Shown here in pieces: positions 20,400-61,500 of a stretch of 64,000 nucleotides of DNA. Each line of letters opens with the position of its first letter. The stretch's first letter is position 1. The position numbers and the translations under genes are program-made. Source of the stretch: Cyanidioschyzon merolae (taxonomy: Eukaryota); NCBI GenBank assembly GCA_000091205.1, contig AP006501.2. One strand, written 5' to 3'. The notes beneath the pieces were generated by a model. It was not told the DNA's origin. It did not search any database and saw only the letters and a list, made by a program, of their open reading frames with translations.

Positions 20400-22220
20400 A
20401 AACAGTGTCGCGTCCCACTTCATGAGTGTTTGTAACGCTTCCCTAGAAAAGATGCATTTTGTGAGGGACATGTACCACGACGTAGCGGATACCAAAACAG
20501 TCAAAGTTCCGGAAGAATTTTTCACGGTTACCTCCATCTGGCACCTGATGGCTGCCACAGGGGAAATGTCGGGGAGGAACGATCCAGTGCACGCCTTCTA
20601 CGAAAACTATCCCTTCTGCAGCATCAACGGTACTCGATGCAGGGCTGACTCGGGTATTTACACTTACGAGGCGATAGAGTATCTCACGAACCTGGGGAAC
20701 CAAACAATCGTAAACCACGAACGGTTCATCAAAGGCTGCATCTTTGCGCTCTACTCGGCCTGTCTCATAGGGTGGGTGACCATCATCGATAGCTCGACTA
20801 GAGATCGCCAGTATGAATAAGAGATCGAATTCTTCGACGAGGAGACATCACACAGGAGCACTACTGAAGGTTCTGTGATCCGTGCGGCTATTAAAGAGCA
20901 ACGTGGGGCCTCGAGGCTAGCGGATCAGCAGAAAACGTATCAGATATGAAAAAACATGAAAAGGAATTTTATCCCCTATCCTGCGCTATGTCGTATTTTT
21001 GAACAGAGAACTCGAGCGCAGGGCCAAAACGGAGCAGGGTGTGGAAGAAAATGAGGAGTCGATGGGGCGGCGGACTGCGCCTTTGGGGAAGCGCTTCAAA
21101 ATCGTACTGTTATGCAACATCAAGTCATATTTTGTGAAAATCGACCCCAGAGTCCTTTACGGCACACTGAAGGAGGTAAGTTCGGATTTCGATGTAAGCA
21201 ACTTGGAATTTACGGGCGAAAACCTGGAGACTCATTGGAAGCACATCTTCGATTTCAAACGTCTCAAAATGAGCAAGAAAAAGGTATTCAAGGAGATGAT
21301 CGAAAGCGATGGAGTATCCATACGCGTTGACTACAGGTGCTTGAAGGTGGATCGTCCTGTTTTGTCCTCGATATCGCGGGTGACGAAGCGTGACGAAATG
21401 AATGATGCGGACCCTACGACGTAGGAGGTGCAGGCGAAGGACCTCGTCGCCGGCGTGGACCGTGGGAACACGAATATCATGACCATTGCTGTTTCCATGC
21501 ATGGGAAAAATGCAAGGGCTCCCATCGCACAGGTGCAGCAAATGGAGAGCATAACCTCTGGACTTGTGACGACGCGGTTAACGACTTTTGCAATGAAACC
21601 CGCAGCGTATGGCACATTTACCTGAGCGGTTATACTCAGACCAGTGGATTTTGGAGTACATGTGCCAGCAACCCATTTTGTTATTGTTTCTTTTGCTCCC
21701 AGGCATTCAAAGAAAGCAATGGATCCCTTAGATTCGATAATTGTGGAGAAGAGACCTCAAACTGTCACTTTTAGCCTGCGAGCAATGATCTGACTCGTTC
21801 AATTCGGTCATTCTGCCATCAGCAGGTGGATGGATCACCTTTATCGTCGTCTTTGACTTGAACTTCGTGCATGAAAGGCAAAACTTAACAAACTCCCTCA
21901 CATAGACAGAATCGGCATCGATCCGTTCCACTCCATACACTCTCGCAGAAATTCTGCCGAAGAACCCAAATCGTGTGGAGTCCCCAGTCCTTTGATGCGA
22001 GGGATGATGAAGAGACACGAATGGACGAAGGAAAAAGCATGCTTCTTTGGGAGTTAATTGCGTGTTTGACGGGCCATTACCGACTCTGTACCGATGTAGA
22101 AGGCTTTTTCCAGAAGCGATATGTTTCGGCCTCTTACGATGAGACCTCTTTCGGAAGAAATGCGAAAGATGTTGATGAATACTTCACGAAGAAGGACAAC
22201 AAATGTTGTTCGTAATGAAG
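20400..22220 (+). mobile_element. Degenerate TnpB/Fanzor-like element, copy 1. N-terminal region, RuvC-I and zinc-finger segments are present; the RuvC-III tail appears absent
   Basis: Homologous at nt and aa level to 46066-47940. GKRFKIVLLCNIKSYFV matches GKRFKVVPLCNIKSYFV; LVAGVDRGNTNIMTIAVS matches VVGADPGDTNIIAIAVS (RuvC-I GxDxG). 21973-22215 (ACLTGHYRLC..KRYVSASYDE) matches copy 2's AGCWASKKWC..RRFATIPIDE. Confidence 0.65.
20999..21625 (+). pseudogene. Fanzor/TnpB-like nuclease ORF fragments of copy 1, interrupted by an in-frame TAG at ~21422
   Basis: ORFs 20999-21424 and 21428-21625 are in the same frame, separated by a stop; the RuvC-I motif lies in the second piece. Confidence 0.6.
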
Positions 22221-24552
22221 AGACAAGCTAGAATAATGACGACATCAGCCCATGCGCAGATTCCATCGAGTGGTAGTACGCAGGTCGCCAAACCTAGGGG
22301 ATCCCTCAGCAACCCATGCATCCTCGGGGCGCTATGTGGCACCTCCATTGTATATTTTTCTTGATTTGAGATGAAGTTGCTTTCCATAACTCTCTAGCGA
22401 TCAAGGAATAAGCAGCTGAGATAAGCGTTGAGCTGCCCTACATATCGGTCCATTCTTGCATGCAAAATCCGGTCGAGTGCGTCCTCTCGATTGCTATACG
22501 ATATTTTCTCGGCCTCGAATTCATAGACGAGACGTTTGCGTCCGTAACAAAGCAGTTCTTCGATAGATCCTTCTTCAACAAGTAATTCTCTACCTTAACC
22601 AGCTTTCAAATGCCCTGTGGCTCTTCCGATCTTTCGGACAAGGGTGTGCAAAAGCGCGCTCTGGCAGTGGAAGTGCCCGCGGCGAAGAAGATGCAAGAAG
22701 GTCACGGAGCATAGTAGAGACACATCTGCATTGTGGTTAGCGTCCGTCCCGCCGTCCTTCTAGTGTATCCAAGTCCCCGGGAGAATAAGATTACAAATAT
22801 AGCTACCGGATCTATGCTACTCTGCTAAGAAAAAGAAAAGGCGAGGAAGCAGAAGAACAAGCGACCAGACAGAGAAAGATACTGTCTGAAAGAAGAGGAG
22901 GAATAGGAAGGGATAACAGTAGGACACGGATTCAATCTTAGAATACCTTTAAGGTCTCTCTGCTAAAAATTGCCAAGAGGATATTTTTCCAATCGTTGAG
23001 ATTAAGGACGCCGTTAGGGACCGTATTGCACCTTGCTCGAGGACAATTCACCAGGCCTGCATAACATTGACACATCTCGTCAATGAATTGCTCGGCGTTC
23101 CAGGTGCGGAACTCCAAGGTACCCGCATTCCAATGGAATTTTTCGATCAAATATTCGTGCCAGAACTGAGACCCGGGACAGAAGCTGCGATACGACCTGA
23201 TATATCCAGAGCTCTAAATCATCATGAACCGGGCGGAATAGACACCAGGGGGCATACCAATATCGGGAATTTCAGTAGCTAGACCTCCATCTCGACGCTC
23301 TGCTTACGGTATTGATCTGAGAGGGATGATTTGTGCGCTTCTCTCACGGTATATGATGGTTCGGATGGCGCATGAGGACGATCCTTGGCTGGGATACCTG
23401 AGACGGTGCTGGTTTCGCCGCAAGTCTTGTTTGTATGGAGGTAAAACGTGCATTTGCGAAATTCGGGAATGGAAGAAATAGAAAATATCTGATAAGTTGC
23501 GTTGTTCGGGGGTTGCCTATGTCGCTTAACTTGCCGAAGAGCGCAAGGGCTCCACCCCTGCTCCTTCACAAAAAGCGCACAATGAGTGAAGGAATCGCTT
23601 CTGTTCGATTCCAATCGATGCTTTTGAGAGAACACTGACGCATCATGAGCTCGAGTGCACGCTGGAAAAGGTACAGAAACAAAGGGGGAAACAGAGCCGA
23701 ATGCAAGTGATGATACACAGTAAGTTGATCGAACTTCAAACGGCAAGGGAATCGAAGTAAAGAGGCTTGCTATGGATAATTTCACTAGGATCCATGAGCG
23801 TAAGCATGTCCTGCACCAGGACTTGAATGCTTCGAGAATCATCCGGAAATGTCTCGTACTTTCGGAACTTCCTGCCGCTGCTGGCGAGCGACGATTCAAG
23901 GGAATCATTTAGCGCTCAGTCTGGGCATTCTGATGAAACGTTGAGAAGCACGGATGAAAAACGTGAGTCGCCCGGAGAGATTGGAAGTGATTCCCGCCTG
24001 GAGCGAGTCACTGGTATGGCACAGTTCAGCAAACCACCAAGACCTAAACTCGATATCCATTCACGGAAAACGGTTTTCCATGAGACTAGCTAAACGATAT
24101 CTCGAGTTCGACTATTTGGTTTTAAATAGTATATTTTAACTTGTCCTGGCAAGCATGATCGTTTCTTCGAACGCCCTGCTGGGCATGAAGGTAGCCTCTA
24201 CATACAGCGGAGCTATGAGTCGGCGAGCTTCTCTCAGCCTCGTGAAAAGCCATTCAACACAAATACGTTTCAAATCAATGGCATGCCTCAGATTATCTTC
24301 ATCATACACAGGTCATCCACTACATACAGCATGAGTAGGCATTGATACTCCGCCAATCCTCCGTTTGGAGCGTCTGCCTGGAACGCCAAGCGTATCTTTC
24401 TCCGGGTGGCACAGTGTGCGGCCCAGCACGAGGACCAGATCCGACCGAAATGCACAGCGAACAGAATGTTTCGCAGCTGTTCCGCGATGTGTCGCAAGCT
24501 CTAGCAACGGGAGAGCTGTCGCAGATCGCACTTTTGACTAACTATTACTTCA

Positions 24553-34309: not shown

Positions 34310-35054
34310 CTAGACACTTGGACGAACGCTTCGCGGTCCTCGGAGCTCACAACAGAAGCTCACATGTCTGGAGCGCACACTGCCGTCTCAAAATGCAGCC
34401 GCCGTTGTGGCTGCACTGCACAAGCTTCACACCGGGCATTTGCGGCGACTAGAAAACGTAGAGGCTTTGAGGCAGCAAAGGAAAGAACAGAATATGACCG
34501 CTAACTAGCTATTCGCCAACACATTCTTCCCGCCTCTATCGTAAGGTTTTCAAGTGGGAAAAGGTTTTCGTAGTTCAGAAAGCTTACCTTCTATGCGCAC
34601 CGTCCGGCTAGTGCTTCATGCTACCAGTGGCGGGTGCAGTGGCGCGACCTGATCAGCTCGTTTGCAAAGCAATTTCACCTGGGACTAGCAGTGGGTAGGC
34701 AGCGTATCTCCGTCACCGTGGTCTCGGTGGTCTCCTAGCATAACGCCTCGCGCTGCAGAAGGCAGCACGTCTTTCTACCCAGCTTGCTGGCTCCCAGAGT
34801 GACGATGAATCCCTATTCCGTGTCGGGTGAACGACGCCTCGAGCCGACACCCTCAGCGGCATGGCAGAGCCGTTCTGTCTTCGTGCTGCATTCGCGCTAG
34901 TGGTTTAGGCGCTCCGGAGGGTGCGCACGGTAGGATCGGCGCACGAGAGAATGTACGGAAAATTCCAAAGGCGGGCGTTTTCTCGTAGCTATTTAAAAAA
35001 GAGGCGAGAAAAGGAAGCACTTGAAGTGAGCTGTGAAGTTGCATCAAGACTACT

Positions 35055-38000
35055 TCAAGTATATGCATCGAACTTCATAGATCGTGGTTCTAGAGAAATC
35101 TTACCACAAAATGAACCGCTTCGTTTCCTCTTAGTTTTCATTTTGCGAAACGCTTTTCCTTGGTATGCGGAGAGTTCCGCCCAGGTTTTCTGGGCATGCT
35201 GATCTCTCGGGGTGGGATCAATGAGGGTAACATCCGAAGAAAAGAAACGTTCCTCTTGAATCCTCCGGAAAGGTGTGTTAGCCTGGGGGACTCTCTTCGC
35301 TCTGTCGGATTTTGGGGCAGCCTGTGGGTGAGGATTCAGCTTGGAGCTAGAGGCACCAGCCACGTCGCACTGACTTTTGTCACCAGAGCCTTCTACAATG
35401 ATGCTTCCTGCTGAGTCATCTCTGGGGTCGGACAAAATGGTTTGCGTGGATGACTGACTTTTGCGCCCCATCGCAGACACGGGTTTCGTTACCCGAGGCG
35501 CCATATCAGTAGATTGCGCTAGCATTCCTGGATGGGAATCAATTTGTGATGCACTGAAAGCGCTCCCTATTTGTTCGTTTGAACTGCAAGCGCGCAGTCC
35601 ATCAAATGCGATCCCATTTCCACCGTCTTCCATCGCTGCGCGCGGCTTGTATCTAGGATCCGCATCTTTGCTAGAGTGAAGTCTCTCTGGTTTCCTGAAA
35701 CCTGCGCAAACGTTTGACTTTTGAGCTTTCGTATGGCAATTCTCAGTTAAGGAATGCCAGCTTGAACAAGGAGATCCGTGCTCTCTACGCGTTCGTTTGT
35801 CTAAAGGTTTCCCCGTATCTCTTTTCTGATGATTTTGGATCTGATTTGCACAGACTGGCAAGTCTCCTCCGTCTTGCGCATGAAACCGATATTGCTCTTC
35901 TAAAGAATCCCATTTCATCGTTTTGTTCTGGCCGACCATGAGGCTAGAGTTATGCGGTTTCGACGTATTCGAGGGTCCACACTGGACGTCGTCACTTATA
36001 CATGATTCCGTAACAGCAGCCGGAGCTGAATCCGTGCCTATTAGTACTTTTCGCTGGGAAGTACGCTCAGTGCCTTCGGCAGGGTTCTGTGATTGAGCAA
36101 CGTTCCCTTTCCGAGAGCTCGCATCCCTAGAAGCTCTGCCATTCGCGATTTCACTTCCAGCATGGTTTGTCCGAACCCCGCGATTCCGAGGGGCCTTGCC
36201 CTCACCTTCAGGGATGTGTTGCGTTGCATGTCGTCCTAATGGATTCCTTCCATGGAGCTCTCCATGAAAATATTGCGACCCGCTGGACGCAGCATTCCCT
36301 GTTCTCTGTTCCTGCACTTTCCCGGAAGCAAGATCTTCAGCATGGTAGCTGTTCATTTGCATTTTCATCTCACGCGATTCTAATGATGGACTTATTCCAT
36401 CAGTATTACCATTCGCGAGAGATCCATTGATTTCATGATAATGCCTAGATGGCTCGCATGAGCTGCCTCCAGTGGAATGCACTGATATGTTATCATTTCT
36501 GTCACAATGAGATGCTATCAGCTGATGGTCTGAGGTGTTGGGAAGGGAATCCTGGAATCGTTCCTCTATCCTGCCAGGAGCCGTGCGACTTGCTGATATC
36601 TTTCCAGGCGGAACTGGTAAATTCGGCTCGCTGCTGGTTCCAAAGTCACTCATATTCATACGCGCTGAGCATCTACTGCAGCCGCTGCTCGATGACGACT
36701 CAGAAGTCGACTCCGAAGTGGAGGACGCAACACCTGCCGTCCTCGGTGGCACCTTTCGCGCCTCCGTAGCCTCTAGTGAGCTCGATGAGCTCGATGAGCT
36801 CGACGATGTTGCCGTCGACGCTAGCGCACGCTTCGCTGAGGCCCGATGTGGCGGTTGGACGCTCCCAGCGCGCCTTGTGACTCGCTCGCCGTCGCTCGAT
36901 GACGACTCAGAAGTCGACTCCGAAGTGGAGGACGCAACACCTGCCGTCCTCGGTGGCACCTTTCGCGCCTCCGTAGCCTCTAGTGAGCTCGATGAGCTCG
37001 ATGAGCTCGACGATGTTGCCGTCGACGCTAGCGCACGCTTCGCTGAGGCCCGATGTGGCGGTTGGACGCTCCCAGCGCGCCTTGTGACTCGCTCGCCGTC
37101 GCTCGATGACGACTCAGAAGTCGATTCCGAAGTGGAGGACGCAACACCTGCCGTCCTCGGTGGCACCTTCCGCGCTTCCGTAGCCTCTAGTGAGCTCGAT
37201 GAGCTCGATGAGCTCGACGATGTTGCCGTCGACGCTAGCGCACGCTTCGCTGAGGCCCGATGTGGCGGTTGGACGCTCCCAGCGCGTCTTGTGACTCGCT
37301 CGCCGTCGCTCGACGACGACTCAGAAGTCGACTCCGAAGTGGAGGACGCAACACCTGCCGTCCTCGGTGGCACCTTTCGCGCCTCCGTAGCCTCTAGTGA
37401 GCTCGATGAGCTCGATGAGCTCGACGATGTTGCCGTCGACGCTAGCGCACGCTTCGCTGAGGCCCGATGTGGCGGTTGGACGCTCCCAGCGCGCCTTGTG
37501 ACTCGCTCGCCGTCGCTCGATGACGACTCAGAAGTCGACTCCGAAGTGGAGGACGCAACACCTGCCGTCCTCGGTGGCACCTTTCGCGCTTCCGTAGCCT
37601 CTAGTGAGCTCGATGAGCTCGATGAGCTCGACGATGTTGCCGTCGACGCTAGCGCACGCTTCGCTGAGGCCCGATGTGGCGGTTGGACGCTCCCAGCGCG
37701 CCTTGTGACTCGCTCGCCGTCGCTCGATGACGACTCAGAAGTCGACTCCGAAGTGGAGGACGCAACACCTGCCGTCCTCGGTGGCACCTTTCGCGCCTCC
37801 GTAGCCTCTAGTGAGCTCGATGAGCTCGATGAGCTCGACGATGTTGCCGTCGACGCTAGCGCACGCTTCGCTGAGGCCCGATGTGGCGGTTGGACGCTCC
37901 CAGCGCGCCTTGTGACTCGCTCGCCGTCGCTCGATGACGACTCAGAAGTCGATTCCGAAGTGGAGGACGCAACACCTGCCGTCCTCGGTGGCACCTTTCG

Positions 38001-39527
38001 CGCCTCCGTAGCCTCTAGTGAGCTCGATGAGCTCGATGAGCTCGACGATGTTGCCGTCGACGCTAGCGCACGCATCGCTGAGGCCCGATGTGGCGGTTGG
38101 ACGCTCCCAGCGCGCCTTGTGACTCGCTCGCCGTCGCTCGATGACGACTCAGAAGTCGATTCCGAAGTGGAGGACGCAACACCTGCCGTCCTCGGCGGCA
38201 CCTTCCGCGCTTCCGCAGCCTCTAGTGAGCTCGATGAGCTCGATGAGCTCGACGATGTTGCCGTCGACGCTAGCGCACGCTTCGCTGAGGCCCGATGTGG
38301 CGGTTGGACGCTCCCAGCGCGCCTTGTGACTCGCTCGCCGTCGCTCGACGACGACTCAGAGGTCGACTCCGAAGTGGAGGACGCAACACCTGCCGTCCTC
38401 GGTGGCACCTTCCGCGCTTCCGTAGCCTCTAGTGAGCTCGATGAGCTCGACGATGTTGCCGTCGACGCTAGCGCACGCTTCGCTGAGGCCCGATGTGGCG
38501 GTTGGACGCTCCCAGCGCGCCTTGTGACTCGCTCGCTGTCGCTCGATGACGACTCAGAAGTCGACTCCGAAGTGGAGGACGCAACACCTGCCGTCCTCGG
38601 TGGCACCTTCCGCGCTTCCGCAGCCTCTAGTGAGCTCGATGAGCTCGATGAGCTCGACGATGTTGCCGTCGACGCTAGCGCACGCTTCGCTGAGGCCCGA
38701 TGTGGCGGTTGGACGCTCCCAGCGCGCCTTGTGACTCGCTCGCCGTCGCTCGACGACGACTCAGAGGTCGACTCCACCAGGACCACAGATTCAGGAAGCA
38801 ATTTCAGAGAAGATGATGAGAATACATCTGGTTGGGGTCGTTCATTATCTAAGACGCTGCCTTTTTTCCGGGGAAACGCCGACGCGTAGAATCGCGACTC
38901 GGCTGAGCCGACAGCACCGGAGTCTGCTCTCGCGCGCCTCTCACGCTCTTGTGGAGCTGACTCGTTTTTTGAGATCGCCACTGCTTCCGAGACAGCGCCC
39001 GGCCCACCAGAATCTGGAATAGACTGAGCAGGGGCCCTTACTGAAACCTTTTCACTTCGCCTTCGACCGGTTAGGGCCGCACCTGCGGCTGACAAACTCA
39101 ATACAGGAGACACGCTCCATTTCGCATCTGTTTCAGAGGCCCATTTGTATGTCCGAGCGTCGATCCCACTTTCTTCCAGTAATCTTGCGTCTAACTCTTC
39201 TATTGCAAAGCTCAAGCGCTTTGATCTCTGTATCGAAAGTCCAGCAGTATGCGAACTGCTCGAGTCGCTTGAGTTGTCTGCAATTTCAGAGCTTGATTCG
39301 GCTCTATGAATAGTCGCATCACATTCGCAGCGTGCACGCTTCTTTGCAAGCTTTTCCGCTGATTCATGCGCCAAAGATTCAGCTGTCCGTTTTAAACCTA
39401 CACTGTGAAGAAACTGAAACAGCGCACCGAGAAGGCCACTGTTTCGCAAACGACCTCCATGCAGTCGGGAATCGCCAGCTTCCTCTTCTGATAGGTGCTT
39501 GTCCCCTTGAGAACATTTTGATTCCAT
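35055..39527 (-). CDS. LisH-domain protein with a long Ser-rich region containing ~10 tandem 69-aa repeats
   Basis: N-terminal LisH-like motif LLGALFQFLHSVGLKRTAESLAHES. Repeats read ...ESTSESSSSDGERVTRRAGSVQPPHRASAKRALASTATSSSSSSSSSSLEATEARKVPPRTAGVASSTS. Unique flanks of >500 aa support this strand as coding. Confidence 0.75.
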   Translation of the reverse strand: MESKCSQGDKHLSEEEAGDSRLHGGRLRNSGLLGALFQFLHSVGLKRTAESLAHESAEKLAKKRARCECDATIHRAESSSEIADNSSDSSSSHTAGLSIQRSKRLSFAIEELDARLLEESGIDARTYKWASETDAKWSVSPVLSLSAAGAALTGRRRSEKVSVRAPAQSIPDSGGPGAVSEAVAISKNESAPQERERRARADSGAVGSAESRFYASAFPRKKGSVLDNERPQPDVFSSSSLKLLPESVVLVESTSESSSSDGERVTRRAGSVQPPHRASAKRALASTATSSSSSSSSSSLEAAEARKVPPRTAGVASSTSESTSESSSSDSERVTRRAGSVQPPHRASAKRALASTATSSSSSSSLEATEARKVPPRTAGVASSTSESTSESSSSDGERVTRRAGSVQPPHRASAKRALASTATSSSSSSSSSSLEAAEARKVPPRTAGVASSTSESTSESSSSDGERVTRRAGSVQPPHRASAMRALASTATSSSSSSSSSSLEATEARKVPPRTAGVASSTSESTSESSSSDGERVTRRAGSVQPPHRASAKRALASTATSSSSSSSSSSLEATEARKVPPRTAGVASSTSESTSESSSSDGERVTRRAGSVQPPHRASAKRALASTATSSSSSSSSSSLEATEARKVPPRTAGVASSTSESTSESSSSDGERVTRRAGSVQPPHRASAKRALASTATSSSSSSSSSSLEATEARKVPPRTAGVASSTSESTSESSSSDGERVTRRAGSVQPPHRASAKRALASTATSSSSSSSSSSLEATEARKVPPRTAGVASSTSESTSESSSSDGERVTRRAGSVQPPHRASAKRALASTATSSSSSSSSSSLEATEARKVPPRTAGVASSTSESTSESSSSDGERVTRRAGSVQPPHRASAKRALASTATSSSSSSSSSSLEATEARKVPPRTAGVASSTSESTSESSSSSGCSRCSARMNMSDFGTSSEPNLPVPPGKISASRTAPGRIEERFQDSLPNTSDHQLIASHCDRNDNISVHSTGGSSCEPSRHYHEINGSLANGNTDGISPSLESREMKMQMNSYHAEDLASGKVQEQRTGNAASSGSQYFHGELHGRNPLGRHATQHIPEGEGKAPRNRGVRTNHAGSEIANGRASRDASSRKGNVAQSQNPAEGTERTSQRKVLIGTDSAPAAVTESCISDDVQCGPSNTSKPHNSSLMVGQNKTMKWDSLEEQYRFHAQDGGDLPVCANQIQNHQKRDTGKPLDKRTRREHGSPCSSWHSLTENCHTKAQKSNVCAGFRKPERLHSSKDADPRYKPRAAMEDGGNGIAFDGLRACSSNEQIGSAFSASQIDSHPGMLAQSTDMAPRVTKPVSAMGRKSQSSTQTILSDPRDDSAGSIIVEGSGDKSQCDVAGASSSKLNPHPQAAPKSDRAKRVPQANTPFRRIQEERFFSSDVTLIDPTPRDQHAQKTWAELSAYQGKAFRKMKTKRKRSGSFCGKISLEPRSMKFDAYT
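36687..38775. repeat. Tandem minisatellite, 207-bp unit x ~10 (one 198-bp variant), inside the LisH protein gene
   Basis: Unit starts at 36687, 36894, 37101, 37308, 37515 and so on, with >95% identity. 207 = 3 x 69, so both strands stay open. Confidence 0.95.
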
Positions 39528-40393: not shown

Positions 40394-41056
40394 TCACGAC
40401 GACGAGAACTCGGCTTTAAGCCCTGACGACCTGCTCGCATACTCACTCCGCAGGTGTACTGAACGGATAAGGTCGAATAATCGAGTATGGTCGAAAGACA
40501 TAATCTCCTCTTTTTTCGCCATCGAAGAAAAAGCATTCGACAGCATCAGCACGATACCTCTCAGGGAGTATGCTCCCAGATGCATGCGTCTCTTCTGTTT
40601 GCTTGGAAAAGTGTCTTGGGATAGGACTTCAGTCATCGCAGCAACAGCTGCCAGAGAAGGGTGCGTCACCGCTTGGGGCAAAGCGATTGCAGACGCAGCG
40701 GTGCAGTCGACTTGCTCCCCAGTCGGGATTTTCCTTCCGGTACCTGTTTTATCGAATGGAATGACGCATTCCAAACAAGCCCCAACTGGAAGGTGCGGAG
40801 TGCGTACGCGTATGCAACGGACAGTGTTCTCGACTAGGGGATCGCCCAGGAGAAGCCCCTGATCGTAAGGCACAGCAACGATGACGAAAACGGATGCAAA
40901 CATCGCGGGGAGCGTATTTCTACAGATTAGCGGCATCTTCGGAGCTGCGAAGCTAGCCTCCATGCGCCAGAGAGCGGCCTTTGTAAGAGACGATGTTGCA
41001 GGCACGTGAGAACGCCTCAGGGCAGCCAAGCGTTGGCGCCGCTGCGCGGGCTTCAC
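40394..41056 (-). CDS. Hypothetical protein; it overlaps a plus-strand ORF (40380-40862), so either could be the real gene
   Basis: 220-aa ORF with an internal hydrophobic segment; no recognisable motif. Confidence 0.25.
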   Translation of the reverse strand: MKPAQRRQRLAALRRSHVPATSSLTKAALWRMEASFAAPKMPLICRNTLPAMFASVFVIVAVPYDQGLLLGDPLVENTVRCIRVRTPHLPVGACLECVIPFDKTGTGRKIPTGEQVDCTAASAIALPQAVTHPSLAAVAAMTEVLSQDTFPSKQKRRMHLGAYSLRGIVLMLSNAFSSMAKKEEIMSFDHTRLFDLIRSVHLRSEYASRSSGLKAEFSSS

Positions 41057-42382: not shown

Positions 42383-45043
42383 TTAAAGATCATGCTCTTC
42401 CTTTTTCGCCTCTCCAACGTCATGGTTTGGCTCGATTTCAAGCGTTGCCCCGCTCAAACTTTCCGCTTGTTTGCTAATGCGCACGCGAACATCTTCTCCG
42501 TGCCGCACTGTTCCCTGCAAAAGGTGGCGAGACAATGGCTCGAGAATTGCCCTCTGGATCACCCTTCTTAGCGGCCGTGCGCCATAGACAGGATCGTATC
42601 CATGTTCAACAAGCCACTGTATTACATCGTCGGAAATGTCTAGGCGGAGATCTGCTCGCTCGCGGAGTAGTTTCTGCAGCGCGTCAAGCTGTACACGAAC
42701 CACATCTTTCAAGATTTCACGTCCAAGTCGATTGAACAAAATGATGTCATCAAGTCGGTTAATGAACTCCGGGGGAAAGAATTGCCGGACCTGAACCATG
42801 ACTTCGTCACGTGCGAAGCTGCTCGGAACACCATCTGGCAGAGAGGCTAAAATATCTGCGCCGATATTACTCGTCATCACAATAATCGTGTTTCGGAAAT
42901 CGACCGTTCTTCCTTGACCATCTGTAAGACGGCCATCGTCTAGAACTTGCAAAAGCACTGTACATACAGCCCGGTGAGCCTTTTCAAATTCGTCGAAAAG
43001 TACCAATTGATAGGGCCTGCGCCTCACCGACTCGGTGAGTTGTCCGCCCTCCTCGTAGCCGACGTAACCGGGTGGTGCACCAATGAGACGAGCGACTGAA
43101 TGCCGTTCAGAGTACTCACTCATGTCCAGGCGACACATTGCATCGGGGCTGTCGAAAAGAAACTCAGCCAGACCTCTACAAAGTTCGGTTTTCCCCACGC
43201 CAGTGGGCCCTAGAAACAGAAATGATCCTATTGGTCGATTGTGAGCGTGAAGCCCTGCTCGCGAAAGACGAATAGCAGACGCGACCGTGCGGACGGCCTC
43301 AGGCTGCCCGACTACCCTCTTCGAGAGGTGATCTTCGAGATGCAGAAGTCTCTCTTTCTCGCTCGACATTAGCGCCTGAACCGGAATTCCTGTTGCTTTC
43401 GAGATCACTTGCAGAATATCTTTCTCAGTCACAGCCTCTGCTACGAGTTTGCCCGACGTTTCTGCCTCATTCTGAGCGACGTTTAACGTAGTCGCGGTCG
43501 TGCCTTGGGCGGAATCCGATAGCAGAATCGTTCGATGCTCAGCGGGAATGCGCGATTCAATCTCTGGTATCGTTTTGTACCGCAGCATCGCCACTTTCTC
43601 CCACTCGCCGCGTCGCTCAGCCATTTCCATCTCATGTAACGCCTTTTCCAACTCCTCTTTTGCTTGTTTCATCGCCTGCAGTTGAGCACGCTCACGTTCC
43701 CATTGGAGAGCCAGTTGTGACCGTTGGTGTTCAAGCTCCCTGACTTCTCCCTCGACTGCGCTCAGCCGCTTTCGCGAGACAGGGTCGCGCTCTAGGCGCA
43801 GTGCTTCTAGCTCGACACGCAGTCGGATCAAGCGGCGATCCAAATCGTCAATAGCTTCAGGTTTGCTCTCTTGCTGCATTTTCAGCCTTGCTGCGGCTTC
43901 ATCAACCAAATCTATTGCCGAGTCAGGTAGTTTCCTCTCTGTCATGTAGCGATGTGCGTTCACTGCCGCAGCAACAAGAGCTCGATCCGCAATACGGACA
44001 CCGTGATGCACTTCATAGCGATTGCGGAGGCCTCGCAAAATGTTGATCGTGTCTTCGACAGAGGGTTCTGCGACGAAAATCGGTTGAAATCTTCTCGCTA
44101 GTGCTGCATCCTTTTCGATATACTTGCGGTATTCAGCGAGGGTTGTCGCACCAACGCAGTGAAGATCGCCCCGGGCAAGCGCAGGCTTCAACAAGTTGCT
44201 CGCATCCAGGCTACCTTCGGCAGCACCAGCACCGACGAGCATATGCAACTCATCAATAAAAAGAATGACGCTTCCTTGGAGCTCCTCGACGTCTCGAAGC
44301 ACACTGCGAAGCCGCTCTTCGAACTCTCCCCGAAACTTTGCCCCCGCAACGAGTGCGCCTAGATCCAGAGCTACTACGCGCTTATTCTTCAAGGACTCGG
44401 GGACGTCACCCCTCGCAATACGCTGCGCCAAACCCTCGACAACAGCCGTCTTGCCGACTCCCGGCTCACCTATAAGGACAGGGTTGTTCTTTGTTCGGCG
44501 CGATAGCACTTGGATTGTTCGGCGAATTTCCTCATCGCGCCCAATCACGGGATCAAGCCGATTCAGCGCAGCCGCGCTAGTAAGGTCTCGCCCGTACTTT
44601 TTCAGTGCTTCTCCAACTGGAACGTTTTCCGGATGCACCCAACCCGGCGGTTGTCCCGTCGCTCCGGTGCGATCGTTCGTGTGCCCCATTCCCGTGGCAA
44701 AACCCCTGATACCAACGACACGTTCCAAGTTCCTGCTGGAAACATTGAACCTGTTTAAAACGGCGCCACGCAAGCTCTCTAGCCTCCTGCACCGTTCCGA
44801 CAACGCCAAGACGCCGGCCTGATGATTGAAAAACATAGTCAGGCGCCTTACAGAATGCCACCTTCGCAACGAACGGGACGCATGCAGCAGAGGCCCTGCA
44901 GGAGCATCCCCAACGAGCGCCCTCGGCCAACTCTCAGACCTGCCAACTGAAGTCCCGAGAAGGGCTGCCCCTCCCCAAGGCGCTTTCGACGAGTTCCTCA
45001 AGGTACGTAGCACTAGAGCCACCATTGTGACAGGAGACGTCAT
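42383..45043 (-). CDS. CLPB: ClpB/Hsp104-family disaggregase with an Arg-rich N-terminal presequence (organellar Hsp78/ClpB type)
   Basis: [32 protein letters not shown], a coiled-coil middle domain, a second [22 protein letters not shown], and a [17 protein letters not shown] sensor region. Confidence 0.92.
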
Positions 45044-46065
45044 AGCGAAGCTGTACGGTCTAACTTGCGAACAAACCGCTCATTCCTTTTCTGGAACAAT
45101 CTCGTGGTGGAGGTCAAAAATTGCGGGGCTCTGCGAGGCGCACTGGCCCCATGCCATATCCTATCTGGGGGGTATTGCAGCGCTCGGCGGATGCACGCTG
45201 ATCTCGAGTGTCAAGCACGGTGCTGAGTTTGTGATGATGCAGGTATTTAGTTTTTGAGCGAGACTCATATTCATCGATACGTACTGTGTGTAATTTCACC
45301 GCGAATGGCGTGTTTCTTGTCGACAACTTCTGCATCAAAGCAAGTCATTGAGCTCGAAACTGGTAGGACTTGTGAGCTGTACGAGCGCCGTAAACATCGA
45401 ACACCTTACTCTGGATTCAGCAGGACACTCCGGTTACGTGAAGCACCTGCTGGAGAGAAGGGTTCAGGGTCTAGTCCGGAAGAGCACGTGGATGCTTTCG
45501 GACGCGATCCAAAGAAGGAGGCAGAGGCCTGGAAGGAGACGGCGCGCGAGCTCCTAGAAACAGATACTGTGCAGGAAGCTATCCACAAGCACATCGAGCG
45601 GGAACATTCGGGAGCGCAAGACGCTCCTGTGGATGTAACGGAAAAGCCGCAGCAGAGCAACTAGTTTTAGAAGGACAACTAGGGGTTAGAAATAGATTTG
45701 GAATTTAGCAGTTAAGAGTTCCGAGCGCCTACGTGGATGCACATAGCTCTCGTTATTCCGCCCGGGACGTATGCTCGCCAGAGCCGTGTCGATGGGAAAA
45801 GGAACACGGAACTGCAAGCTCTGCTCCTGTCTTTGCATGTTTGGAAACTATAGATGTGCAGCCTCGGCACAGAAAGTGCGGCGCTCTTGGCTCACGGTTT
45901 CATACGACGTGTAAGAATTCTCAATCATATTTCTGGAGTGGCACCTTCGACGCTATGAAGCAGGAATTCGTTACATCAATGCCTGCAAGATGATTTTCGA
46001 CACCTTCGAACAAGGGTCCGTAATATAACCAATACCATTATCTAGTCAATTCGCACAAGCCTCAA

Positions 46066-47940
46066 TTGCTCTCCGTTCTTCACGTGCAGTATTCTCAAAT
46101 CACGCGTTCTTCATGTTTTAGTCTTTCTTCTTCAAGGTACTTCGGGGGTTCTGCAATGTGCCCCGATGGATTGGTGAGGAACAACATGAGATGTCGACCT
46201 TTGACGACTTGTTCACAAGGTCATGCCGAAAGTCAGCTGAACCTTCCACGCCAAGTAATAAATTCTGTACGAAAGACATGTCCTTCTCTATTTGCAAATT
46301 ACGAAGAAACCGTATTTTACAACAGCACAATGGTTCCCAGAGAATATGCTCCCAGCGGCTTTCGTCTCTTGTGCTTTAATGGAAACGGGTCTTGGACCCG
46401 GGCCTCTCTCGAAAAGGCATTTGGGCCATCGTCACTGCCATCACCAACGATCGGCAGCATGAACAGGCGAAAGAATTTTTCGACAAGAAGACATCACGCA
46501 GGGGAAAGAATGAAGCTTATGTGATCGGTTCGGCTATTCAAGAGTACCGTGCGGTCTTGGGGCTAGCGAATCTCGCAGAAAAGTCATCAGATATGAAAAA
46601 AAGGTGATGAAATGCGCTGTCCCCTCATCCTGCGCTATTTCTTGTTCTTTGACCGAGAACTCGAAGACAAGGCCGGAAAGGAGCTGGGTGTAGGAAAAAA
46701 AGAAGAGTCGGAGAGACAGAAGGCTGCCCTAATGGGGAAGCGCTTCAAGGTCGTTCCGTTATGCAACATCAAGTCATACTTTGTGACAATCAACTCCAGA
46801 GTCTATTTCGGCATCATGAGGGATATCTATGAGGAGTTCGGCGTAAACAGGGAGGAGTTCAGCGGCGAAAATCGGGACACGTACCGGAAGAGTATCTTCT
46901 ATTTAAAAAGTGTCAAAACGAGCAAGCAAAAGAAATTCACATGGATGGTCGAAAGCGATGAAGTATCCATGTGTGTACACTTTCGGCGCTTGAAGGCGAA
47001 TCGTCCTGTTCCGTCCTCGGCTTCGCCCCTGAGGAAGCATGCAGAAAAGAAAGAGGCGGATCCTGCTACGCAGAAAGTGCAGGATAACGACTTTGTCGTT
47101 GGCGCGGACCCAGGGGACACGAATATAATAGCCATCGCAGTATCGAAGCGTATGGTAGATGTGACTGACGGCAACTTACGTCATAAAGACATGCGTCTCT
47201 TAAAGTTCTCGAGAACGAGATATCACCGAGAATCGGGAATAATGAGTGCGAGGGAAAAAATTTAGGAAGAGAATTCAGGAGTGAAAGAGCGCCTGGAAGC
47301 TATGAGCGAGGTGACTAGCCGAAAAGCGGACTTTCGAGCTTTTCTGAAATTCATGGAAGTTCGCGTTGCTCTTTGGGAGGCGCTGTGGAAAGAGTATACA
47401 AAGCCACGATGGGCTCGTTTGTGAATGAGCTTGTACTGTGTGAAGCAGCGGGCATTCGCCAACTTTTTCAATGAGTTGAGTGCCTTGAAAGAGGACGAGA
47501 GTCAAAGGCACGTAGTAGCATTCGGAGCAGGGTGCTGGGCATCGAAAAAATGGTGTACACCAGCTCCAACGACGAGAACGTACAAGGAGCGTGCACGGCG
47601 TTTTGCCACAATACCAATAGATGAGTTCCAATCGTCCAGTATTCACCATGAGTTGGGATGTACACTTCAGACGGTCGAGATGGATTAGTGTCAGCGGCGC
47701 GGTGACGATATAAAACAGTACGGAGCGCTGACGGAAGAGCAAATGGAAAGGACGGCGAAAGTTCGAGGATTGCTTACGTTAGTGAGTACAACCACCGGGA
47801 GGAAACGTGTGAAGTTTGTGAACAGGGAATTTAACGCCGCCATCAATATAAGGAGATGTGCGGTGATGGAAATAAGACCTCCAGAGTTGACAAGAGTGAA
47901 TTTTTGGGAGAACCTCTCAAATTATACGAGAAGAAATTGA
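46066..47940 (+). mobile_element. TnpB/Fanzor-like RuvC nuclease gene, copy 2. Full-length architecture but broken by in-frame stops and one frameshift
   Basis: Same-frame ORFs 46066-46524, 46612-47265, 47425-47688 and 47743-47940. RuvC-I VVGADPGDTNIIAIAV, Cys/His cluster GCWASKKWC..HHELGC, and a C-terminal VNREFNAAINIRR (RuvC-III signature with D to E). Confidence 0.7.
46612..47265 (+). pseudogene. Largest intact segment of Fanzor/TnpB-like copy 2 (N-terminal/WED-like region plus RuvC-I)
   Basis: 217-aa ORF ending at a stop. The sequence continues in another frame (EENSGVKERLEAMSEVTSRKADFRAFLKFMEVRVALWEALWKEYTKPRWARL), which indicates a frameshift. Confidence 0.6.
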
Positions 47941-48058
47941 AGCCAGTAGTAAGTGGCCAGTCTAAAAAGGCTGGGAAGCGTCTGCACATCGGCTGGAGAC
48001 GTCTAGCGTAGAGCGCGAGGCGCGCAACTACTGCACCGCTGGTGGCAACGTCTGACTT

Positions 48059-48799
48059 TTGAGGCGTTCGTTATTGCCAGCGTTGGCTGTGATGGAGGGC
48101 CCGGAGGCAAACCCTTCGTGTTCAGAGGTCTTGACACCCTCAAGCGCACTGCCTAGAGCTGAAGCGACACGCACGGCGCTCGGGTGGTTCTGGTTCCGGG
48201 TGCGGACGTGTTTTGGACAAGGTGACGCTGCGACTCAAAAATTAGAGCAACGATCTTTCGTTCAGCGACTGTTACCTCTGTGCACACTAGTGCTCACTTT
48301 GTGCTTAGCGTTCACGCTTTGGAGGGCTTTGGTCCTGTGGACCTACTCCGAGTCCCCAGTCGTTGTGGTGCTCAGTGGCAGCATGGAGCCAGGTATTCAC
48401 CGCGGGGATATCCTATTTCTTTACAACCGCACCGCAGCTGAAAGGCCTTTACGTGTCGGTGATATGGTTGTTTACAGTTTGCGTGACCGCAGTCTGCCGA
48501 TAATCCATCGCATTATTGAAGTTCATAGACGAGCTTCCGAGAGCATAGGCGATGGCACAAGGGCATCAAACTCTAGTATCCTGGAATATTTCCTTACAAA
48601 AGGGGATAACAACTTCGGTGACGATCGAGGTCTCTACCCTGCTGACAAGAAATGGCTGCTACGCAGTGACGTCATTGGACGGGTTATCTTTACTATCCCG
48701 AAAGTTGGCATGCTGACGATCCTGATGAATACACACAAATGGTTAAAATACGCCCTGATAGGACTGCTGTCACTCACCCTGCTCTTCATATCAGAGTGA
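48059..48799 (+). CDS. SEC11: Signal peptidase complex catalytic subunit SEC11; the true start is probably an internal Met
   Basis: SESPVVVVLSGSMEPGIHRGDILFL (Ser-His catalytic region) and a C-terminal GDNN..DDRGLY motif. Confidence 0.88.
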   Translation: MRRSLLPALAVMEGPEANPSCSEVLTPSSALPRAEATRTALGWFWFRVRTCFGQGDAATQKLEQRSFVQRLLPLCTLVLTLCLAFTLWRALVLWTYSESPVVVVLSGSMEPGIHRGDILFLYNRTAAERPLRVGDMVVYSLRDRSLPIIHRIIEVHRRASESIGDGTRASNSSILEYFLTKGDNNFGDDRGLYPADKKWLLRSDVIGRVIFTIPKVGMLTILMNTHKWLKYALIGLLSLTLLFISE

Positions 48800-52960: not shown

Positions 52961-53314
52961 TCAATAAATGTATTCACGCGCAGACGATTCCCAGCCTTTT
53001 TCGACCGGCAGACTGCTGTCGGCCGGTCGAAAAATGTACACTTCGGGTCTGCGAGGCTTCCACACGAAGTTAGATCGCCTCAGCTCTGCGGCCCTCGTCT
53101 CCAGCACCGCAAATCGTCTGATATTAATAGCAGTGCTGAAGTCTCGGTTCACAAACTCCATGCGTTTGTTGCCGCTGGTTGAACTCACTAGTCTAAGGAT
53201 TCCTCGAACTCGAGCGCTCAGTGCCATTTGGTGCTCTGTCAACTCTGCGTGATTTTCTATCGCCGAGCCGCTCCACCGGCTCCTCTCCATCTCGTTCTTC
53301 TGAAGTATACGCAC
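52961..53314 (-). pseudogene. TnpB/Fanzor-like C-terminal fragment, copy 3, carrying the RuvC-III motif
   Basis: LSARVRGILRLVSSTSGNKRMEFVNRDFSTAINIRRFAV aligns with copy 2's TAKVRGLLTLVSTTTGRKRVKFVNREFNAAINIRRCAV. A TGA stop lies immediately upstream, so it is a fragment. Confidence 0.65.
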
Positions 53315-54538
53315 AGTTCATCCAAAGGGTTTTTTTCCTGAAACGAACGTACTTCCTCCCGTCCTTAAGTCAGGAGTTTCCCGGAGGATCGAAAGACTTG
53401 GAAAGTAAAGACAAAATGTGTCCCGATGTGTTACCGTGTGCTGAAAGCTTCAGCGATTCGCCCACTAGAACGATCACTACGTTTCACGATAGAAAACACT
53501 CCTTCGATGAGCTTTAACGACCGAGCGCATGCAGAGATAGAAAGCAGCTCTTCCCCGATTGCATTGGTAAAAGCTCAAACGCAAGAAGAATGGTGAAATA
53601 CCACGTTTTCCAATAGAATGACGTCGCTGGACGTCAGGAGAAAGTCTTCAATGATTCGCCAAAGTGGTCGGTGCTGTTGTATGAGCCTTTTCGATGAGCG
53701 AAACTGAGGCCGCAAAATGAATCTACTGCAGTTAGAACAGATAATGATGTCCTCGTTCTCATCGAGCTCGATCGTACATACAATGCGATTCCTCTCCGCA
53801 AATACTCATACACGCTTCGAGCGTATCGTTTGAAGTAAGTCATATTGACTGAAGAAACAAACCGACGTCCCCGTGCTTCATACCGATCGCGACGTGTCAG
53901 GACTTGTGTTCGAGCGATTCGGCGGAAGATGGCCATGCATGCATTTGGACTTTTTTTGCGACTGGATCTCAGTATTTTGATGACCACATATACAGTCTGG
54001 TGTGAAACAGGAACACCAGTAGTAAATCGTATCGACGCCTTTTGCTTTCCCTAGAGTGATCAACGGATCGTCTTCTAGCGTTGAGAGCAATCATGCTTTA
54101 AGAATATCGATTTTGGCACGAAATGCTTTCAATCTTTTCTTTCAGTGTTCCACCACCATCTGTGTTCTCCGCTACGAATGAGCTGAAGGTAAATGCAGTC
54201 CTCGTTGCAATTTTCAGTAAATGATATATCTTGTAAGCAATTCGTCTGTGATCTATGCGGTACATTGATCTGTAATATCCATCTCCATCTAGACAACACA
54301 GCGGAGCCGAAACAGAATTGAGTTGAAAGCCGCTCGCGTACGGCACTGAGCGCCGCGCACGCAATTTCGGGATTCCTTGCGCGTTGCAGACCGCACTCTG
54401 CAGTTGAACGCGTTGAGGCCAGTGGACGCATTCATAGTGTCGAGTGCGTGGACGTATTGTTTGCATAAAAAGCGAGCTCTCTATGAGGTGTTTACGTAAG
54501 TCACTGCTAGATTTGTAGCTCCTGGACTCCTCTATTCG

Positions 54539-58571: not shown

Positions 58572-61500
58572 GCGCCGGCGCCTGCAGTGCTTGGCTTTCT
58601 CGAGTAGCTGCTATGTGCTCCGGGCAGAGGTGGCGAATAGAGCAGGAACCAAGCTCGCCAAAAAACGGAAGCGAGCTCCTGAGTTATTTCCTGGTTTTTT
58701 ACGAACACTATGGAGGTATTCCAATTCTTTGTTCAGGTTTCGGATCGTGGCCAGCACTGACGGCGGCAGCAGTAAGCCCGTGCGCTCAGCATAGCAATAA
58801 GCGGGCTCAAGGTCGTCATCACGACTAGATGCTCCCTAATCAGAATAATGACTTGCTGAGCTGATAGCCTTCACTGCATTCACCCTCAATATTGGATGCT
58901 GACTACCTCATGCACATCGTCGCCTCTTTGATCGATGGGAAAGCGGCGCTATCATACTGCTGTCCCATGGATTTCCGACGAGAAACTCTCGAAAGCGGTC
59001 CGGTTTCGTGAAAAGATAGAATGGTGCATCTTTTTGACGGAAATATGATGCTTCCAACACTTGCAAGGCCAGACGTTGCGACATTGTTTCAGACGTAATC
59101 CACACGGGCCGAGCAGCATCTGCAGAAAGCTGGATTCGCGCAACCGACCAGAGAGACATCTTCTGTACTTCTGTCCCTTCTCGGCTGAATCTGGGAACCC
59201 ACTCACACACTATATAAAGTCGCTTAATTGGGATCAGGCTTTCTTAGATTCTCTTGATTGTTTTAATAAAACGACTTGCAGCTCGCACTAATTGTGGAGT
59301 CGTTTGCGTGGCTCTCCGTTGCAGAGCGGAGTTACGCGACAGCCCAAAACATTCATGATGTTCTACATACAGCTGTGAGTTATAGAACGCGTCTCCAAAT
59401 AAACCTTGTTCTTTTGCTCGTTTCTCTCACAGATATCGAAAACCAGGAATGCATCGTTGGACTGAAGAATGGACGCGGAATTTTTTTTGCTTTAAGTGCT
59501 GGCTGGCAGTTGAAAGCCTCAGATTTTCGAGTACTTCGTGCTTCGCTCAGCTAGTGGATGAGCGAACCTTCTTGTTGTCAATCTCTTGAACATTGTCTAC
59601 TCTTGAAAAAGATCAAATCAAAACCTATCCAGATGACTGGCTCCTCAGCAATCCATTCCACCCCAGACTCTCGCTCAAAAAAATAAATGCGAGAGGAGCC
59701 ACAGGATCCGAGTTTTCCCGTTCTTTGACGTGAACCATGATAAAGCGACACGCTTGGAGAACGAAAATGGGACCCTTCTATTCGAGACAGGCGCGCGTGA
59801 AACAACACACCATCGACTTCGTCCTGAAACGCGAATGCGTATTTCGAGAGGCAAGGGCGGTGATCTCGCTCAACGAGACTCCCTTCGGAAGCGATGATGG
59901 TCCTTTGCGTGGGCGCCCAGAGGGCGGCAAATTACTGTTCATGAAGGAAACGCTGGCGGGAATGATCGCAGCATCAGCGCTAGCGGGGATTCAGTCGAAT
60001 GTTCGCCGCCAAATCGCCAAACGGAAAGAATCGTCCAACACCGCATCATAGGTTGAACCACTCTTCGTGGCTTCTTTTCCGCGAACTCATCCATCCTGCT
60101 CTCGCACAACATAGCTTTCCACCGCCCATATGGTGTCGTCTAACACGCTGCTTGCATTCATGTTGGGCTGCTCCTCGTGCCGGTCTCTACTTCGTGGTAT
60201 GATCGAGTCGAACGCGCATTCTATGGCATCAAACGCTCTGTTGACGCTCACGAATCTCTAGACATGTCACTCGAACCGTCGCACCGTTCTTAAACAAGTC
60301 GTGCTCTCCCTTCATCTGCCATGAACTGCTGTGTTGCTTTAGTGCTCGTGCGCGGTATGGAGGTGAAATACGCTCCACGGTCCGTGAATATTCTCGCAAC
60401 CGAGCGGATCACCAGAGGATTCCTGAGGAGGAGGAGTAGATACATATACACCTACGCAGCAGAAGGCGGACTCGGTCCCACCGTCCATCAAGCGCGTCTG
60501 AGCTCCTAGGGGACAAACGTCCATGATATACAGCGCCGAAATCCAAGCCATCTCGCCGAGCAGATGTGAAGAAGGGAAACGCCACTGGGCAGAGAAAAGG
60601 AGGGTTCCCTTGAATAGAGGACTACGAGGGAGAGGACGGAAAATCTGCCGGAGCTGAAAGACCAGTCTGAAAGCGTTGTCAGGTCTTTTTTACCAAAACA
60701 TATTAACCTGGAGCATTCCCAGAAATTGAAGAGAATGACTTCAGTGGGAAGAGCGCAGCTTCACACACAAGGAAGGCTCACCTGATATTTCTCGCATTGA
60801 CGCACGTCGTCAAGCAGCATATCGTGGGAGTTCCGGACGCAGTGCTGCCAGCTGTCCACATTCTTATCGAAAGTTTTCATCATATCTTCCTGAGAAAATG
60901 CAGATGATGCTCTTGTCAGAAGGTTCACTGCGCTCCGATCGTTGGATCCGAGTTTTGGACACCCGCTATCCAGCACGCCTACAAGCATCCCCGCGCCAGT
61001 CAACGATCGGAACATCTAAAGCACAGGTACCAGAAGCCATCGAAGCAATCTCATGAAACGAAACCATTCGTGGGTTAATGTCGAGCGCTTCATGAGGCGG
61101 ACACTGTTGGTATTGTTGCAGTTGTACGCTTATTCCACTGGTCCGGAATTGTAGGAACTGATGCAAAGGGTTCCCGAGGTGTCGATAGATGAGAATGACG
61201 AGCTCGTGACGAAAGAGCTCGTGACGGTCGCGAGTTCTGAAGGGATATCGCAGTGAGAGAGAGAGAGTCGCAACGATGTTCCAAGCTAGCATCAAATGGC
61301 TAAGGTTTGTGGCACTTGTGCCCATCGCACTTGCTGGTGTCTCTCAGATGCTGCATGCGCATGCCCATGAAAGCTTTTGGTGCAGAAGCAGCCTCAAGAA
61401 GATCCGGAAAGTATACAATACGACCGATAGAGCATCAGGCGTCTGCAAAAGTGGTATATCAACAAGTATCAACTATGCTCGCGAACACTGGAGCTTCTTG

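Follow-up and report, generated by a model that had tools for sequence, protein, structure and literature searches.

A Fanzor-like locus of Cyanidioschyzon merolae is very probably a dead, 5'-truncated copy of the published transposon CMe-1A

Fanzor1 proteins were established as RNA-guided nucleases in 2023 in other species, and RNA-guided DNA cleavage that depends on a target-adjacent motif (TAM) was shown for SpuFz1, GtFz1 and others (PMC10432273, PMC10530073). The Fanzor1 protein of Cyanidioschyzon merolae was described in 2013 (Bao & Jurka, Mob DNA 4:12; PMC3627910). This protein, CMe-1, has 734 amino acids (aa) and lies within the element CMe-1A, whose 3169-bp consensus is represented by about 150 genome copies, each approximately 80% identical to it. 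CMe-1A was reported as lacking terminal inverted repeats and having an undetermined target-site duplication, and its 5' 635 bp are common to TE-N2_CMe. Three green-algal Fanzor1 genes from the same study, CRe-1, CRe-2 and CRe-3, sit in Helitron2 elements, so that their carrier transposon is known, in contrast to CMe-1A, which has no classification. Here we examined a stretch of 64,000 nucleotides (nt) of C. merolae DNA (contig AP006501.2, assembly GCA_000091205.1; hereafter the window), in which an analysis of the letters alone (the sequence-only reading) had placed a TnpB/Fanzor-like RuvC nuclease gene at positions 46066-47940.

The CMe-1A consensus DNA and the CMe-1 protein, taken from the supplements of PMC3627910, were used as queries. 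With blastn, window positions 46396-48062 aligned to consensus positions 1486-3163 with 83.7% identity over 1680 bp, and with tblastn CMe-1 residues 261-697 aligned with 74% identity over 437 residues in the frame of the sequence-only reading. The protein continued in the two other frames, with residues 193-262 matching at 46392-46601 (frame 3, 74% identity) and residues 694-730 at 47892-47996. The similarity to CMe-1A is far above chance expectation and makes the locus a member of this element family by DNA similarity within C. merolae. Its drift of about 16% from the consensus corresponds to the divergence published for the roughly 150 copies, but it spans no more than the element's 3' 53% and carries three stops, two frameshifts, two in-frame deletions and an Asp-to-Glu change in the RuvC-III motif. 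A complete CMe-1A with both ends was not found at this position, since the blastn result and the alignments showed the 3' end but none of the 1485 bp at the 5' side. The stretch 46396-48068 is thus, with high confidence, a dead and 5'-truncated copy of the Fanzor1-carrying, approximately 3.2-kb element CMe-1A. The extent of the relic, its first coding part and the excluded sequence upstream are as follows.

46396-48068, plus strand: whole relic, 5'-truncated CMe-1A (consensus 1486 to about 3169), from blastn and base-level alignment, with the 3' boundary from a multi-copy alignment
46396-46601, plus strand: coding remnant of CMe-1 residues ~193-262, in a frame that differs from the first open reading frame (ORF) piece of the sequence-only reading (tblastn, three-frame translation)
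46066-46395, plus strand: excluded upstream stretch, part of a different dispersed repeat and not Fanzor (no CMe-1A or CMe-1 match)

Similarity to the consensus begins abruptly at 46396, so that 193 codons are lost together with their ATG, the KKRK motif, the promoter and the 5' non-coding part. From this point the ancestral frame is open over 46392-46607 and joins the frame of the sequence-only reading through a 1-nt insertion in a run of A. The four same-frame ORF pieces that had been described (46066-46524, 46612-47265, 47425-47688 and 47743-47940) are all present, but the stretch 46066-46395 had to be withdrawn from the gene. It showed no similarity to CMe-1A DNA or to the N-terminus of CMe-1, and a diverged CMe-1 N-terminus was rejected as an explanation for it; it has weak matches to window positions 40492-40619 and to the metagenome stretches L008 and L020. 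As a separate observation, 45935-46395 is part of another dispersed, weakly repeated element with 65-70% identity to these same three stretches. The other boundary of the proposed gene also moved: the stop at 47940 was made by a deletion, and the ancestral stop codon lies at 48009-48011 with the element continuing to approximately 48068. The lesions and the ancestral stop codon were located as follows.

46596-46602, plus strand: A7 homopolymer with a +1 frameshift, from the list of differences to metagenome contig L004 (A6)
47263-47265, plus strand: in-frame stop TAG (consensus GAG, Glu483), from the consensus alignment and also in L004
47422-47424, plus strand: in-frame stop TGA (consensus CGT, Arg536), from the consensus alignment and also in L004
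47686-47688, plus strand: in-frame stop TAG (consensus AAG, Lys624), from the consensus alignment and also in L004
~47796, plus strand: 3-nt deletion (consensus alignment, indel list)
47904-47940, plus strand: 1-nt deletion at ~47904 (frameshift), then a 6-nt deletion at ~47919 (alignment, indel list and the tblastn tail at 47892-47996 in another frame)
48009-48011, plus strand: ancestral Fanzor ORF stop TAG (consensus alignment)

The TGA at 47938-47940 that closes the last ORF of the sequence-only reading is in frame because the 1-nt deletion at about 47904 shifts the frame. An unbroken ORF, a start codon and purifying selection, as would be expected of a functional gene, were not found in the relic, which lacks a start and is interrupted by three stops and two frameshifts. 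Compared with the consensus, 16.0%, 12.1% and 18.6% of sites were substituted at codon positions 1, 2 and 3, and the corresponding values for an older copy in the window (copy 1, 19880-21512) were 23%, 21% and 23%. This pattern is close to neutral decay. The slight deficit at second positions, which counts to some degree against this reading, could reflect selection before insertion or a little later constraint.

A live Fanzor gene, in which the stops and frameshifts are assembly errors or are bypassed by readthrough or programmed frameshifting, would be favored by the retained RuvC-I Asp and RuvC-II Glu and by the absence of the A7 lesion from a near-identical wild contig. This contig, L004, comes from an independent metagenome assembly and is 99.78% identical over 8.9 kb, i.e. 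it represents a near-identical wild strain with the same insertion. It carries all three stops (TAG, TGA and TAG), the deletion at 47904 and the Asp-to-Glu change, and the only lesion that differs is the length of the A-run. Given that L004 has every lesion except the extra A, the stops are real and older than the split of the strains. With six A residues, L004 has an open ORF of 290 aa at this place (P0008, 100% identical). In addition, the relic has neither the 5' region and start codon nor the first 193 codons, the substitutions are nearly uniform over the codon positions, and the neighboring genes are long unbroken ORFs with exact matches to GenBank proteins. A live gene was therefore considered highly improbable, as it is effectively refuted by the shared lesions, the truncation and the substitution pattern. 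An alternative genetic code was rejected as well, given that both TAG and TGA occur among the stops and that frameshifts and truncation come in addition. Because of the truncation, the three stops, the two frameshifts, the RuvC-III change and the drift, the CMe-1A relic makes no nuclease today. The difference between A7 in strain 10D and A6 in L004 at 46596-46602 could itself be polymorphic, or one of the two assemblies could contain a homopolymer error.

The sequence-only reading had recognized the family from its motifs, and this assignment was correct, on the grounds of the published consensus, transitive profile matches and predicted structure. The positions that bear on it are listed below.

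47095-47142, plus strand: RuvC-I motif VVGADPGDTNIIAIAV, with the catalytic Asp codon 47107-47109 kept (aligns to the Fanzor1 DPG in the profile alignment)
47512-47532, plus strand: VVAFGAG, with Gly at the canonical TnpB RuvC-II Glu position, as in Fanzors (family alignment; PMC10530073)
47611-47637, plus strand: IPIDEFQSS, alternative RuvC-II Glu kept (codon 47623-47625) and the next [TS][TS] motif degraded to QSS (profile alignment)
47644-47661, plus strand: HHELGC, site of the first TNB zinc-finger CxxC in canonical Fanzor1, degenerate throughout the CMe-1 clade (family and profile alignments)
47818-47856, plus strand: RuvC-III motif VNREFNAAINIRR, catalytic Asp changed to Glu (GAA at 47827-47829, consensus GAC; consensus alignment)

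The order of these motifs, i.e. the RuvC-I Asp, a Fanzor-type RuvC-II, a degenerate TNB region and RuvC-III, fits the architecture that had been proposed. The GxDxG-type strand of RuvC-I was present as described; GADPGD at 47101-47118 aligns to LDPGR of Fanzor1, and its Asp is invariant in a 6-sequence alignment and nearly invariant across 87 relatives. RuvC-II is rearranged in Fanzors, where Gly or Pro stands in place of the canonical Glu and a different conserved Glu lies downstream (Jiang et al., PMC10530073). The same arrangement was found in the relic, where the Glu of IDEF (47617-47628) lies 33 residues past the Gly of VVAFGAG, and in the CMe-1 family, which has VVAYGAG with Gly at the position of the TnpB RuvC-II Glu and, 33 residues on, VDEFRTS with a Glu that is nearly invariant. 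The RuvC-III Asp is kept by the family (NRDFNAAINI in the consensus and in intact relatives) but not by the relic (NREFNAAINI), so that the C-terminal motif noted earlier does exist while its catalytic Asp is not intact. Likewise, the strings GCWASKKWC (47530-47556) and HHELGC that had been taken as a Cys/His cluster are present, but no conserved cluster is formed; at the first of them the consensus reads GAGRWTTQKGTTPAP, and the cysteines arose by substitution.

Several results count against the Fanzor1 assignment. The sequence-only reading had set in advance the lack of a significant profile match, together with an unfitting motif order, as refuting its claim, and a search of the repaired translation against families in Pfam and PDB indeed gave no significant match, so that on the profile side the claim would have failed by its own criterion. 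The repaired translation returned nothing from Pfam even at E<=1, near-intact relatives matched no Pfam family significantly, and a PDB sequence search with the relic and a search with a 16-sequence profile gave chance-level matches only (E around 0.5). Moreover, the C4 zinc finger that lies between RuvC-II and RuvC-III and belongs to the Fanzor/TnpB motif (PMC3627910) is missing throughout the CMe-1 clade in the family and profile alignments: where CVu-1 and CRe-4 carry CxxC...CxxC, the clade reads TSYTHHELGC...LLALVSTT. Since the direct Pfam and PDB searches were empty, the evidence for family membership is transitive and structural.

More than 120 relatives were obtained by homology search, all metagenomic and several of them long (P0005, 752 aa; P0100, 699 aa), and the long relatives read GADPGNTN, VDEFRTSYTHHE and NRDFNAAINI. 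A profile that joined the CMe-1 and P0100 groups retrieved full-length relatives with E-values between 1e-90 and 1e-128, and an exhaustive hidden Markov model (HMM) search gave 2554 cluster representatives at E<=1e-3. PF26935 is a precomputed label on many of the homologues. Two of the full-length relatives, P0189 and P0224, exceeded the Pfam gathering score for PF07282 (Cas12f1-like_TNB), whereas the CMe-1 clade itself stayed below the threshold. Given that these more distant full-length relatives reach it, the TNB domain appears to have been kept and its zinc ligands lost. An HMM of 87 family sequences scored 137 bits on the green-algal Fanzor1 protein VCa-1, 84 on CVu-1, 56 on CRe-4 and 39 on CRe-1 and gave no score on the Fanzor2 protein ACa-1. 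Across the green-algal proteins VCa-1, CVu-1 and CRe-1 to CRe-5 the CMe-1 profile aligned over RuvC-I, RuvC-II and RuvC-III (39-137 bits) and superposed the three catalytic motifs DPG, DEF/NEY-TS and RD-NAA. Unlike the CMe-1 clade, CVu-1, CRe-1 and CRe-4 retain the C4 zinc finger.

The structure comparison was run on the relative P0005, which is 55-62% identical to the window translation, and not on the relic itself. The AlphaFold2 model, computed with the family alignment as input, had a pLDDT (predicted local distance difference test score) of 81.7 and a predicted template modeling score (pTM) of 0.80. In a Foldseek search against PDB the top seven matches were all Fanzor1 (SpuFz, PpFz and GtFz; E 5e-16 to 1.4e-13), the best being SpuFz 9cez_P with E=5e-16 and a target-normalised TM of 0.72. 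The predicted model has the bilobed WED/REC/RuvC fold of the solved Fanzor1 structures (SpuFz1 8GKH and 9CEU-9CEZ, PpFz 9CF0/1, GtFz 9CER) and matches them over nearly the whole length, with the same catalytic layout of Asp, relocated Glu and Asp. However, sequence identity between these proteins and the CMe-1 family is only 12-14%, the CxxC...CxxC zinc ligands are missing from the CMe-1 clade, and its RuvC-I is preceded by a disordered linker that varies in length. Cas12b, Cas12o, Cas12i and ISDra2 TnpB ranked after Fanzor1 with E around 1e-2. The structural match to bacterial TnpB (ISDra2, 8H1J) and Cas12f is distant and limited to the RuvC/TNB core, and CMe-1 differs from these proteins by its much larger size, the relocated RuvC-II Glu, KKRK near the N-terminus of the consensus and the lack of an IS200/IS605 context. 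The KKRK is a possible nuclear localization signal, lost in the relic, and the family is a multi-copy, transposon-borne gene with a putative N-terminal signal of this kind.

The lack of direct Pfam and PDB sequence matches would also be expected if the locus were not Fanzor at all, i.e. if the RuvC-like motifs had arisen by chance or a bacterial or organellar TnpB had been acquired separately. The probability of this explanation was judged to be close to nil. It is refuted by the 74-84% identity to a published Fanzor1 consensus, by the whole-length Foldseek match to solved Fanzor1 rather than TnpB, and by profiles that match Fanzor1 and not Fanzor2, to which comes the Fanzor-type rearranged RuvC-II. 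The Fanzor1 assignment holds at the family level.

In the window copy a single unit of approximately 23 aa, ending in ...ATQ(E/K)VQDNDFVV(G/D), was seen at ~47030-47100 directly before the RuvC-I Asp. The unit is tandemly duplicated one to four times across the metagenome copies L007, L009, L024 and L034, and the region is disordered in the P0005 model (residues 380-469, pLDDT below 50).

By analogy with SpuFz1 and GtFz1 biochemistry, we infer that the ancestral protein was an omega-RNA-guided, TAM-dependent double-stranded DNA endonuclease serving its transposon. The ancestral CMe-1A would have encoded a nucleus-targeted, RNA-guided DNA endonuclease of 734 aa with a RuvC site of the TnpB/Cas12 type, the triad of which would consist of the Asp in GADPG, the relocated Glu in VDEFRTS and the Asp in NRDFNAAINI. 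This enzyme would be loaded with a guide (omega) RNA transcribed from the 3' end of the element, and the guided complex would cleave DNA beside a short TAM, thereby aiding persistence or spread of the transposon.

The 3' end of the consensus, where a transposon end or an omega-RNA scaffold is expected, contains two stem-loops, and two CMe-1A subfamilies differ in the terminal stem-loop in the multi-copy alignment. The counterpart in the window is decayed.

48020-48066, plus strand: decayed 3'-terminal region of the element, with two stem-loops in the consensus (multi-copy alignment)

The tests for a conserved RNA gave no clear support to the guide-RNA part of this model. Covariation of the two hand-drawn stem-loops (about 80% of cells paired) was not above that of shuffled alignments (31/500), RNAalifold found essentially no consensus structure in 22 independent 3' ends, a search of positions 45000-48600 against Rfam gave one chance long non-coding RNA match only, and the folding z-score of the 3' 182 nt of the consensus was only -1.74. 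No omega RNA is claimed for CMe-1A.

The terminus of the element reads ...GAAAGGCG. Independent insertions have similar sequence in the first 12-16 nt past the 3' end of the consensus and then diverge, e.g. TTTGTTTYCAGKGGTG and TCGCTAGCAGC; such shared flanks were seen at three sets of loci (L016, L023, L042 and L078; L036, L054 and L083; L026 and L045). A terminus that lies further out, subfamily-specific tails and a target-site preference are possible explanations. The 5' flanks of CMe-1A are T-rich and usually end in a T-run. Separately, consensus positions 5-14 and 3098-3107 form a perfect 10-nt inverted repeat (GACAAAACGT / ACGTTTTGTC), a length reached in 1/2000 shuffles; the two stem-loops lie downstream of its 3' arm, whose decayed counterpart in the window is at ~47998-48010. 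Asymmetric terminal inverted repeats of a similar kind are found in Helitron2, the Fanzor1 carrier in Chlamydomonas.

The origin and gene neighborhood of the locus were established from exact matches of window ORFs to four C. merolae 10D proteins, ClpB (BAM82758.1), RSH (BAM82752.1), SufE/BolA (BAM82760.1) and signal peptidase I (BAM82759.1), all on one 1.28-Mb record. ClpB and the signal peptidase flank the relic. Their accession numbers are consecutive and the ORFs of the relic have no entry in the C. merolae protein collection, which means that the locus is without protein annotation. The earlier suggestion of an unannotated, broken gene was thus right as to the annotation, but what lies here is a neutrally decaying, truncated relic and not a nuclease gene awaiting repair.

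Only about 23 nt separate the 3' end of the relic (~48068) from the ATG (48092) of BAM82759.1, which lies downstream in the same orientation, and the promoter or 5' untranslated region (UTR) of this gene may therefore sit within the relic. The relic could in this way have been exapted as promoter or 5' UTR for the signal peptidase gene SEC11, or its 290-aa ORF could encode a truncated WED/REC-like protein. Apart from the short distance, this would be consistent with the retention of the insertion in the wild strain, with the open 290-aa ORF in L004 and with the metagenomic gene call P0118 from a more distant relative, in which Fanzor C-terminal sequence is fused to a Peptidase_S26 domain. Given that the 290-aa ORF is broken in 10D, that near-neutral substitution is contrary to constraint at the protein level and that in so compact a genome chance alone would account for a nearby start codon, exaptation was regarded as improbable, and a relic of CMe-1A in neutral decay remains the preferred description. 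A wider proposal, also doubtful, treats the CMe-1 clade as a possibly distinct lineage of Fanzor1 that has lost its TNB zinc ligands and may be carried by a hairpin-ended, Helitron2-like non-autonomous element, with the 10-nt inverted repeat, the two 3' stem-loops and the T-rich 5' flanks as its features. In this proposal the CMe-1 consensus might be brought back to life as an RNA-guided nuclease adapted to heat and acid and, separately, the relic studied here may now provide the SEC11 promoter or 5' UTR.

The case for novelty fails, since CMe-1 and CMe-1A of C. merolae were already characterized as Fanzor1 in PMC3627910; the sequence-only reading had called for a proper characterization of the nuclease family in this genome. 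The relic is an ordinary pseudogene of an already catalogued transposon family, which was recognized correctly from motifs alone, and its discovery value is small given that the element family and its copy number were published in 2013. On the practical side, annotation of the C. merolae genome can now mask this relic and its siblings or label them as CMe-1A pseudogenes. The CMe-1 clade is missed entirely by profile libraries of the Pfam type, and recognition therefore needs the Repbase consensus or a predicted structure.

The window contains at least five or six Fanzor1/CMe-1A relics, the others being located as follows.

19880-21512, plus strand: copy 1, older CMe-1A relic, consensus 84-228 and 837-2250, 77-78% identical (repeat search, alignment)
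22965-23903, plus strand: much-diverged Fanzor1 relic, ~35% aa identity (sequence comparison)
60660-61223, plus strand: much-diverged Fanzor1 relic (sequence comparison)
53036-53326, minus strand: short CMe-1A fragment from the RuvC-III region, consensus 2749-3020, 74% (consensus comparison)
34482-34960, minus strand: 5' non-coding TE-N2_CMe-like part, consensus 133-636, 74%, just downstream of a repeat-protein gene

Copy 1 lies 25.6 kb upstream of the relic and is 3'-truncated, without RuvC-II and RuvC-III and with 5 stops and several frameshifts. The two much-diverged relics at 22965-23903 and 60660-61223 have ~25-39% aa identity to relatives of the P0100/P0157 type and 33% to CMe-1, and this comparison of sequences suggests an older or second C. 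merolae Fanzor1 lineage, beyond the single CMe-1 family listed in 2013. Metagenome contigs contained 383 confirmed CMe-1A-family stretches, and the integrity of the ORF was checked in the best 80 of these loci, 0 of which had a clearly intact Fanzor ORF. The longest open frames were those of L007, from which the start region and ~38 residues at the end are missing, and L024, in which the N-terminus is scrambled and the RuvC-III motif mutated. The lack of a clearly intact copy among the best 80 suggests that the family is extinct or nearly so.

Two further repeats were seen in the window. On the minus strand, a 1490-aa ORF at 35055-39527 contains ten 207-bp tandem repeats (36681-38834, 96-99% identical), which encode Ser-rich units of 69 aa with a local GC content of up to 57-59%. 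The very start of the window (23-307) forms an inverted repeat with arms of 111 nt that are 78% complementary and separated by 63 nt.

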